Below are positions 1-569 of a DNA stretch of 569 nucleotides, in pieces. Positions within the stretch are counted from its first letter, which is position 1. Every line of letters begins with the position of its first letter. The DNA comes from Escherichia coli (GTDB lineage Bacteria; Pseudomonadota; Gammaproteobacteria; Enterobacterales; Enterobacteriaceae): NCBI RefSeq assembly GCF_003334335.1, contig NZ_QOWQ01000170.1; one strand, 5' to 3'. The notes under the pieces are model-generated. The model searched no databases. It saw nothing but the letters and a program-made list of their open reading frames with translations, and had not been told where the DNA came from. The position numbers and the translations under genes were made by a program.

Positions 1-569
1 CCGGACCACCCGGACCACAGGGTCCGGCAGGGCAAACCGGCCCGAAAGGGGATAAAGGTGAACCCGGCGCAACAGGTCCGGCAGGTCCCGCAGGCCCTCG
101 GGGAGAAACCGGCCCCGCAGGTCCTGCGGGTCCCGCAGGCAGTGTCGCCAGTGTTCCGGATGCCAGCACATCGCAGAAGGGTGTGGTGCTGTTGAGCAGT
201 GCCACAGACAGCGCTGAGGAAAACAAGGCCGCCACGCCGAAAGCGGTGAAGGCAGCAATGGATGCGGCAAATGCAGCGAAACAGCGTGCAGAAGAGGTGG
301 CGAAGGCTGGGGCATCAGGCAGCAGTATGCCGGGACCCAAAGGCGATCAGGGGCCACCGGGGCCGAAAGGTGAAAAAGGTGAACCGGGAGCAACAGGCCC
401 CGCAGGAAAGGATGGTGCCGCCGGAGCGGAAGGTAAGGCAGGTCCGGCAGGGCCACGAGGTGAAAGGGGACCAGCGGGGGCGCAGGGTGTTCCGGGGCCA
501 CAGGGCCCTGCCGGAGGGCGAGGGCCGATGGGACCGCCCGGGTTGGATGGTAAAACCGGACCACAGGGA
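1..569 (+). CDS. Partial (5' and 3' truncated) phage/prophage tail fibre protein with collagen-like Gly-X-Y repeats; codon phase begins at nt 3
   Basis: Frame 3 (nt 3-569) is open for all 189 codons, while + frames 1 and 2 contain stops (TGA 193-195, TGA 247-249; TAA 53-55). Translation: [189 protein letters not shown]. Strict Gly every third residue over 15 and 26 consecutive triplets cannot arise by chance. Product call rests on recalled similarity of the central motif to phage tail fibre repeats; not verified by search. Confidence 0.85.
3..140 (+). repeat. Collagen-like triple-helix tract 1: 15 uninterrupted Gly-X-Y triplets plus closing Gly (coding repeat inside the CDS)
   Basis: Codons at 3-140 read [46 protein letters not shown]. 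Pro is enriched at X, and charged residues (K, D, E, R) occur in X/Y positions. Confidence 0.9.
141..332 (+). other. Non-collagenous interruption (64 aa) containing a phage tail-fibre-repeat-like motif (core about nt 177-263)
   Basis: Translation [64 protein letters not shown]. The core [11 protein letters not shown]...[12 protein letters not shown] matches my recollection of the consensus of the short repeat in lambdoid side tail fibre proteins (Pfam 'Phage tail fibre repeat'). Family assignment is from memory. Confidence 0.65.
333..569 (+). repeat. Collagen-like triple-helix tract 2: 26 uninterrupted Gly-X-Y triplets plus Gly, continuing past the window end
   Basis: Codons at 333-569 read [79 protein letters not shown], with no break in Gly periodicity. 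Confidence 0.9.

Follow-up and report, generated by a model that had tools for sequence, protein, structure and literature searches.

Features of the window

The DNA that we analyzed is a single stretch of 569 nucleotides (the window), and it can be translated throughout in frame +3: nucleotides 3-569 give 189 codons with no stops. The Gly-X-Y register of this translation is broken, with a run of 16 triplets (nt 3-146) and a run of 26 complete triplets (nt 333-569) on either side of 62 residues that are not collagen-like. The features of the window are:

nt 3..146, + strand: C-terminal 16 triplets of the first collagen-like domain (Col1); Gly-X-Y run, window residues 1-48, fiber residues 209-256
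nt 30..85, + strand: internal repeat, copy 1 (19 residues); 46 of 56 nt shared with nt 351-406
nt 147..332, + strand: non-collagen interruption of 62 residues (SVPDAST...GSSMP) between Col1 and Col2; window residues 49-110
nt 165..290, + strand: one complete copy of Pf2 (Phage_fiber_2, PF03406); window residues 55-96, model positions 1-42 of 42, E = 3e-15
nt 237..311, + strand: Ala-rich predicted alpha-helix (25 residues, from AlphaFold2), which overlaps the end of Pf2
nt 333..569, + strand: first 26 triplets of the second collagen-like domain (Col2); Gly-X-Y run, window residues 111-189, fiber residues 319-397
nt 351..406, + strand: internal repeat, copy 2 (19 residues); 46 of 56 nt shared with nt 30-85

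A preliminary description of this sequence had reported charged Gly-X-Y triplets over nt 3-569. The triplets are there: all 14 of the charged triplet types that it named are found in register (GPK three times, GEP and GPR twice each, and the others once). Their continuous extent did not hold up, as nt 147-332 are non-collagen sequence with a Pf2 repeat, and the glycine periodicity is absent from window residues 49-110, or about one-third of the span. Overall, 18 of the 42 complete triplets in the window have at least one charged residue, and these are unevenly distributed: they account for 5 of the 16 triplets of the first run and for 13 of the 26 of the second.

The pattern of a glycine at every third residue is far above chance, so the repeats are real: when we shuffled the nucleotides 2,000 times and considered three frames, the longest Gly-X-Y run was 6, as compared to the observed runs of 16 and 26. 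Pfam's collagen family (PF01391) matches window residues 1-47 (E = 1.4e-8), 109-153 (E = 4.6e-7), and 138-189 (E = 7.9e-7). A search of the window against Rfam gave no match. Both of the collagen-like domains continue outside the window. Col1 starts upstream, at fiber residue 136, and Col2 extends another 3-4 triplets, to about residue 407 (Pfam's collagen match in the full open reading frame [ORF] is at 318-406).

In phage Mu tail fiber protein S (PDB 5yvq/8ju3), residues 109-151 align to the Pf2 repeat within the interruption (E about 1.5e-7). When the full ORF is searched with Pfam, Pf2 is found at residues 263-303 (E = 1e-14). Our search for literature on the Pf2 fold via PDB 5YVQ turned up nothing specific. 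A single-chain AlphaFold2 model of the window had a mean pLDDT of 58 (a trimer is outside the scope of such a model), and the sole confident region was a helix at about window residues 80-100 (pLDDT 86-87). The model also draws Pf2 as a helix, at low confidence, and this part of it is unreliable. The Ala-rich helix has three heptads with V-A-A-A-A-V at the a and d positions, and going by the predicted helix and its heptads, it is probably a short trimeric coiled-coil connector.

A tail fiber gene in a lambdoid prophage

A 60-mer from the non-collagen center of the window has a single exact match in IMG/VR, and the entire window is 100% identical to nt 2750-3318 (- strand) of an IMG/VR contig (L003). 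There it lies within an ORF of 500 codons (nt 2438-3940, with an ATG start), of which it encodes residues 209-397. The exact 500-amino-acid protein is also encoded on a 341-kb contig of NCBI assembly GCA_000407805.1, and the host flank (btsS-btsR-yehS-yehR) is 100% identical to that of E. coli K-12. Because of the exact protein match and the K-12-identical flank, the source is an E. coli chromosome with a lambdoid prophage. This bears out the prokaryotic or phage origin that the preliminary description had favored, and the taxonomic assignment that it had proposed as a check refutes a eukaryotic source.

Upstream of the fiber gene are the genes for tail proteins L, K, and I and then the central fiber J (1,155 amino acids), all of them intact; the fiber gene is directly after J. 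Downstream are, in order, a 191-amino-acid DUF4376 protein (PF14301), a 424-amino-acid adhesin with a YadA anchor, DinI, and then host genes. The 191-amino-acid protein matches PHROG 1141 (“tail fiber protein”) and is homologous to ORF-191A of prophage P-EibA. No Tfa-type fiber chaperone can be recognized downstream, and the PHROG matches included no Tfa family. In related prophages that have an identical tail protein L, the virion module is complete, from portal to fiber.

The full ORF matches PHROG 366 (“tail fiber protein”) with E = 8e-130. Its layout is PfN (phage_tail_N, PF08400) at residues 1-134, Col1 at 136-256, Pf2 and the Ala-rich helix at 257-318, Col2 at 319-407, and a C-terminal domain of 93 residues. 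PfN, which is outside the window, covers the entire Pfam model (positions 1-134 of 134, E = 3.6e-42), and residues 1-91 match residues 1-91 of the collar domain of Ur-lambda Stf (PDB 9e7m, a 94-amino-acid chain; E = 2.1e-28). Before Col1 there are only about 35 Ala/Glu-rich residues (100-134), which are inside the PfN model, and a long PCoil is absent. In the Pfam search of the full ORF, C-terminal residues 408-500 matched no family, and PfC (PF06820) was absent. Eight isolated E. coli phages (PhiR5_x and PhiR12_x), whose hosts on record are E. coli C, K-12 MG1655, or ECOR13, carry a C-terminal domain with 93-99% identity to that of the fiber.

Ghosh et al. (2012) grouped the E. coli prophage collagen-like proteins (EPclPs) into EPclA to EPclD (PMC3368898). 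EPclC proteins have two Col domains that are split by Pf2, they usually lack PCoil, and their C-terminus is unrelated to PfC; the type example is ORF-401 of P-EibA (AAF63232; PMC3368898). The fiber described here begins with PfN, and its Gly-X-Y runs (136-256 and 319-408) flank Pf2 (263-303). It has no long PCoil, and its C-terminus is not PfC. The conserved G-X-P-G-G-P-X-G break of Col1 is present too: at residue 187, which is upstream of the window, it reads GDPGGPPG. The gene is in the side-fiber slot after J in a lambdoid prophage of E. coli, as is expected of EPclPs in E. coli and Shigella, and the protein has the positional residue preferences of EPclPs, with a minor deviation in K/R at X and D/E at Y (see below). 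At the level of sequence, all of the defining features of EPclC are present. We are highly confident that the product is a side tail fiber of 500 residues from a lambdoid, P-Eib-type E. coli prophage, with the EPclC architecture, and that the window accounts for residues 209-397 of it. This type of protein is already known: it was catalogued and biochemically characterized in 2012. Relatives in complete E. coli genomes are labeled “prophage tail fiber N-terminal domain-containing protein” or “tail fiber protein,” and since annotation pipelines already name them as prophage tail fiber proteins, the value of our assignment as a discovery is small.

Mosaic structure and purifying selection

Different parts of the gene have different close relatives. 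Residues 1 to about 273 (window nt 1-199) share at least 96.5% DNA identity with P-EibA ORF-401, E. coli LZSFT34, and PhiR5_2, and the Col1 codons within the window have just 0-2 nucleotide differences from these three. Window nt 129-499 (Pf2, the linker, and early Col2) have their match in a prophage of E. coli 2013C-3033, with 97% identity. Across Pf2 and the linker, there are 52 nucleotide differences in 58 codons from P-EibA ORF-401, LZSFT34, and PhiR5_2 (pN/pS = 0.28). From window nt 394 onward, and through the C-terminal domain, the gene matches PhiR5_2 at 96-98%. In the diverged segments, pN/pS in the sense frame is 0.28-0.44, which indicates purifying selection.

We had also considered that Col1 had diverged from P-EibA mostly by synonymous changes, with the protein strongly conserved, given about 89% DNA identity across window nt 1-261. 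We rejected this, as Col1 is near-identical; the figure of about 89% is due to a sharp allele break inside Pf2.

Judging from these alignments, the gene is a three-way recombinational mosaic, with a P-EibA-type front, Pf2 and Col2 of the 2013C-3033 type, and a tip of the PhiR5/PhiR12 type. We searched 5,426 complete genomes of E. coli and 50,697 records of phages; none had the exact combination in the window, and there were only mosaic matches (80-98%). Just 39 of the 5,426 genomes had a megablast match. As a side observation that is mildly interesting, the three-way mosaic is a clean one, and its junctions fall in shared collagen or Pf2 sequence.

We suggest, tentatively and with some doubt, that Col and Pf2 might serve as in-frame recombination joints, by which prophages swap receptor-binding tips while the attachment to the tail is kept. 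If this were true, then part of the selection on Gly-X-Y would be for a linker that tolerates recombination, as exchanges in multiples of three would leave a working rod. It is more speculative that the collagen rod might also contact mammalian host factors, beside the neighboring Eib immunoglobulin-binding adhesin.

Alternative explanations for the gene

The gene could be a decaying remnant in a defective prophage, with an ORF that is intact by chance or by recent descent and with no functional fiber in this strain. Many of the lambdoid prophages of E. coli are cryptic. Also, in one related prophage (L008), J is split into many small ORFs and the fiber is truncated to 268 amino acids, and another (L007) has a fused ant-K ORF. 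Nevertheless, we think that decay is unlikely, although it deserves some weight. The ORF is full length, at 500 amino acids, with every domain intact, and J, I, K, and L are intact on the same contig. Furthermore, the diverged segments show purifying selection, and the same C-terminal domain is found in E. coli phages that form plaques. This explanation bears on the strain and leaves the encoded product unchanged.

It is very improbable that the product is a bacterial surface adhesin similar to Scl1/Scl2, Lcl, or BclA, which would attach to the host and would not be part of the virion. NCBIfam's models for SclB, Lcl, and SclA do match, with E values from 1e-15 to 1e-19; BclA is among the PDB matches; and the next gene but one encodes an Eib-like adhesin with a YadA anchor. 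However, the NCBIfam scores are 68.3, 63.4, and 56.6 bits versus curated cut-offs of 325, 500, and 400 bits, respectively, so they fall short by 4-8-fold, and these matches are confined to the Gly-X-Y repeats. At its N-terminus, the product has the phage collar domain PfN in place of a secretion signal or a variable domain, and the gene occupies the fiber slot after J.

Even less probable is that the other strand is the coding one. Antisense frame -3 is free of stops across the window, and there is an ORF of 383 amino acids with an ATG start on the strand opposite the fiber ORF (nt 2686-3837, + strand, of L003). Open antisense frames are a frequent by-product of GC-rich repeats that have few stop-forming codons. 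The 383-amino-acid ORF matches no PHROG family, versus E = 8e-130 for the sense ORF. Moreover, G is the first base of 105 of the 189 codons in the sense frame, as expected of glycine codons, and pN/pS is below 1 in the sense frame.

Residue composition and charge pairs

The composition of the two collagen-like domains also bears on whether they belong to a phage tail fiber, as we believe, or to an animal collagen. The preliminary description had taken the charged triplets as support for a prokaryotic origin. Charged residues make up 26.2% of the X and Y positions when the window is considered and 28.6% when the whole protein is. By comparison, Table 4 of PMC3368898 gives a share of 33.5% in EPclPs, of about 26.7% in the fibrillar collagens of humans, and of about 17% in the collagens of Gram-positive bacteria. 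Since 26.2% is so close to the human value, the abundance of charged triplets fails to separate animal from prokaryotic collagen, and this part of the argument for a prokaryotic origin is weak and cannot stand by itself.

The real discriminators are the placement of proline, the ordered K/R-Gly-D/E pairs, the embedded Pf2, and the genomic context. Proline is found at 52% of X positions and 14% of Y positions in the window, as compared to 31% and 33.5% in human fibrillar collagens and 48% and 7% in EPclPs (PMC3368898). An animal collagen is expected to have at least as much proline at Y as at X, since proline at Y is what prolyl 4-hydroxylation acts on, and the window has the opposite. We can dismiss with near certainty that the window comes from an animal (eukaryotic) gene or cDNA for collagen. 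The full ORF does have its strongest PDB matches in the collagen chains alpha-1(I) and alpha-2(I) (E about 1e-70), and the charged share of X and Y equals that of human fibrillar collagen. But those matches reflect the repeat and the composition only, and the window sits among phage tail genes in an E. coli chromosome with host genes flanking them, has a phage Pf2 repeat inside it, and belongs to an ORF that starts with the phage domain PfN.

In the whole protein, the X positions are 50% proline and 23% D/E, and the Y positions are 24% K/R and 14% proline. Considering both the window and the full protein, proline accounts for 50-52% of X positions, and Y positions are 21-24% R/K, 21-29% Ala, 12-14% Gln, and 12-16% Thr. 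Cys, Phe, His, Trp, and Tyr, and also Ile and Asn, are absent from the positional counts for the full protein. The deviation from EPclPs is that K/R accounts for 6-7% of X positions and D/E for 4-7% of Y positions, versus 0.3% and 0.1%, respectively.

The charged residues are also ordered. In the window, all seven of the D/E residues at X positions are preceded by K/R at the Y position. Seven K/R-Gly-D/E pairs were observed in the window versus 1.4 expected (15 versus 3.7 in the full protein), and none of 20,000 shuffles equaled the observed count; this test assumes that the triplets are independent, and the internal duplication supplies two of the seven pairs. This ordering supports selection for ion pairs from Y to X' (the X position of the next triplet). 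K-G-E and K-G-D count among the most stabilizing sequences in studies of host-guest peptides.

The preliminary description also held that proline and charges stabilize such helices without hydroxyproline. This fits with Ghosh et al., who attribute the stability without hydroxyproline mainly to proline at X and who mention charged residues (PMC3368898). Of all of the residues in the window, 17.5% are charged, which is below the 22% in EPclPs and the 30% in Scl2 (PMC3368898), so electrostatics may contribute less than proline at X does. The circular dichroism and melting experiment that the preliminary description proposed has already been published for a relative, EPclA, which is a trimer with a collagen signature in circular dichroism, a melting temperature of 42 C for Col, and a dumbbell shape with a hinged stalk (PMC3368898). 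The protein in those experiments has a single Col domain and a long PCoil, and its C-terminus is a different one (PMC3368898).

Proposed working of the fiber

Starting from the domain order and the homologies, we infer the rest of the mechanism from homologs of the fiber. By homology, three chains would form one fiber. The two Gly-X-Y segments would fold as collagen triple helices and form a thin, stiff shaft. The window would correspond to this shaft, with two triple-helical rods that are joined by Pf2 and the short Ala-rich helix. The Pf2/helix segment might be a trimeric node, and possibly a hinge, that holds the chains in register between the rods. Since E. coli is not known to have a prolyl hydroxylase, the triple helix would owe its stability to the proline that fills about half of the X positions and to ordered ion pairs from Lys/Arg at Y to Asp/Glu at X'.

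The 93-residue C-terminal domain is probably the tip, which would trimerize and bind a receptor; the receptor role is suggested by its position. By binding a receptor on the host's surface, the tip would speed up adsorption. In Ur-lambda, 12 N-terminal copies of Stf form a collar at the gpV/gpM junction, there are four trimeric side fibers, and adsorption is faster (PMC12617516).

The tips of this mosaic family of fibers set which strains of E. coli are adsorbed to by temperate phages, which often carry virulence genes. As recombinant biomaterials, collagen rods that lack hydroxyproline and have a melting temperature above that of the body are also of interest. As for how to recognize them, counts of charged Gly-X-Y triplets are uninformative about origin, and the asymmetry of proline between X and Y, the K/R-Gly-D/E pairs, and phage domains are informative.

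Comparison with known systems

Streptococcal Scl1/Scl2 and other Gram-positive collagen-like proteins have Gly-X-Y helices without hydroxyproline, and stabilization by charge has been proposed for them (PMC3368898). Unlike the fiber, proteins of the Scl1/Scl2 type are adhesins that are anchored in the cell wall, and the domains that flank their helices are different ones. Gram-positive collagens differ in composition as well: Thr occupies 48% of their Y positions, and they have fewer charges than the fiber (PMC3368898).

The tail fiber protein S of phage Mu shares the Pf2 motif DAS..KG.V.L.SATDS....AAT.KAVK.AMD.ANA, with 43 residues aligned. It has no collagen repeats, and it is a myovirus fiber with a different N-terminus and a different tip, so the likeness is to one repeat.

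The side tail fiber of lambda (Stf, P03764) has a homologous N-terminal collar domain (residues 1-91), and its gene is likewise in the slot downstream of J. Stf also contains Pf2 repeats, and it is a trimeric accessory fiber that speeds adsorption. The shaft of Stf is made up of coiled-coil domains (PMC12617516), whereas the shaft of the fiber described here is collagen-like. The gp37-like tip of Stf binds OmpC (PMC12617516) and is unrelated to the tip described here: searches of PDB and Pfam with the full ORF gave no match to gp37 or to the C-terminus of Stf, and the tip matches solely fibers of the PhiR5/PhiR12 type. Also, stf is followed by the gene for the chaperone Tfa, whereas the downstream gene here encodes the DUF4376 protein.

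EPclA and EPclB of E. coli O157:H7 (ECs2717 and Z1483) have PfN and collagen domains in common with our fiber, and EPclB has the Col-Pf2-Col arrangement as well. Their positional preferences match (Pro and D/E at X; K/R, Ala, Gln, and Thr at Y). Unlike the fiber described here, EPclA and EPclB carry a PCoil of 109-116 residues and a PfC (PF06820) C-terminus. In addition, Col2 of our fiber has some K at X and some D/E at Y (in GKD, GAE, GKA, GLD, and GKT), which are nearly absent from EPclPs.

P-EibA ORF-401 has the same architecture as our fiber (PfN, no long PCoil, Col, Pf2, Col, and a C-terminus that is not PfC), and it too has the G-X-P-G-G-P-X-G break in Col1. Up to about residue 273, the two genes are almost the same in DNA sequence (at least 96.8% identity). 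From the middle of Pf2 onward, ours is a different allele. Our fiber has a linker that is 4 residues longer, a Col2 of about 89 residues instead of 75, and a total length of 500 instead of 479 amino acids. The C-terminal domains are strongly diverged, and the only motifs that they have in common are PG-S/T-W and LFQR. The published gene order in P-EibA (J, lom, ORF-401, ORF-191A, eibA) matches the order that we found, and the proteins are 64% identical for the fiber and ORF-401, 65% identical for the DUF4376 protein and ORF-191A, and 69% identical for the adhesin and EibA.

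Mosaic structure of the fibre gene

Judging from DNA-level comparisons with related genes, the side tail fibre gene (positions 2438-3940 of the IMG/VR contig L003) is a three-way recombinational mosaic. The window, which corresponds to nucleotides 623-1191 of the gene, contains parts of all three segments:

Window 1-199: front half, of the P-EibA/LZSFT34 type
Window 129-499: Pf2, linker and early Col2, of the E. coli 2013C-3033 type
Window 394-569 (Col2 part): late Col2 and C-terminal tip, of the PhiR5_2 type

The junctions lie within shared Col (collagen) or Pf2 (tail-fibre repeat) sequence. 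The two collagen domains also share an internal repeat, which codes for GPKG(D/E) and the 11 residues that follow, and which could mediate in-frame length changes in the collagen rods:

Window 30-85 (Col1 copy) and 351-406 (Col2 copy): 46 of 56 nucleotides identical

Charge orientation in Col2 and the antisense frame

Within the Gly-X-Y triplets of Col2, lysine is found in X and aspartate or glutamate in Y:

Window 390-440 and 540-560: GKD, GAE, GKA, GLD and GKT triplets

Among E. coli prophage collagen-like proteins (EPclPs) overall, these two placements are almost absent (0.3% and 0.1%), but Col2 of the window has both. Two of the three acidic Y residues in Col2 are followed by a lysine in X' (E-G-K, D-G-K), forming pairs of reversed polarity.

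On the minus strand of the window, frame -3 is open over all of 1-569, as part of a longer antisense ORF:

L003 2686-3837, plus strand: 383-aa ORF with an ATG start

No PHROG family matched this ORF, which the GC-rich repeat probably produces as a shadow ORF.

Apparent insertions and decay in the tail region

In the neighbourhood of the fibre gene (L004), two stretches within the tail gene cluster are apparent moron insertions:

L004 214-1377 and 2328-4340: tail cluster insertions, including a porin gene (387 aa) that precedes tail gene L
Lying between tail genes L and K: genes for a ClpP-like protease, for two Arc-like repressors and for an Ant/Bro-N antirepressor, plus a P22-type sar antisense RNA that scores 69 bits

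This layout is kept in two related prophages (L007 and L008), in which the porin gene lies between M and L. The related prophages show signs of decay:

L007 11854-13326: fused Ant-K ORF of 490 aa
L008 14385-17874: J fragmented into numerous small ORFs, alongside a truncated fibre of 268 aa

Comparison with P-EibA

The genes around the fibre gene can be compared with those of the published prophage P-EibA (J, lom, ORF-401, ORF-191A, eibA):

L004 9572-9858, after J and before the fibre gene: hok, coding for a 46-aa toxin (PF01848), with a sok antitoxin RNA
L004 11523-12098 (L003 1843-2418, minus strand): DUF4376 protein gene, next after the fibre gene
L004 12578-13852 (L003 89-1363, minus strand): YadA-anchor adhesin, 424 aa

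The hok/sok pair (sok scores 59.6 bits in Rfam, with a gathering score of 59) fills the slot that is occupied by lom in P-EibA. The gene following the fibre gene encodes not a Tfa-type chaperone but the DUF4376 protein, a homologue of ORF-191A (65% identical) with a variable N-terminal part and a conserved C-terminal half; it may be an assembly partner of the fibre or a distal fibre component. Across its C-terminal 263 residues, the adhesin is 69% identical to the immunoglobulin-binding protein EibA, whereas its N-terminal passenger region differs from that of EibA. It looks like a prophage-borne variant of the Eib family.
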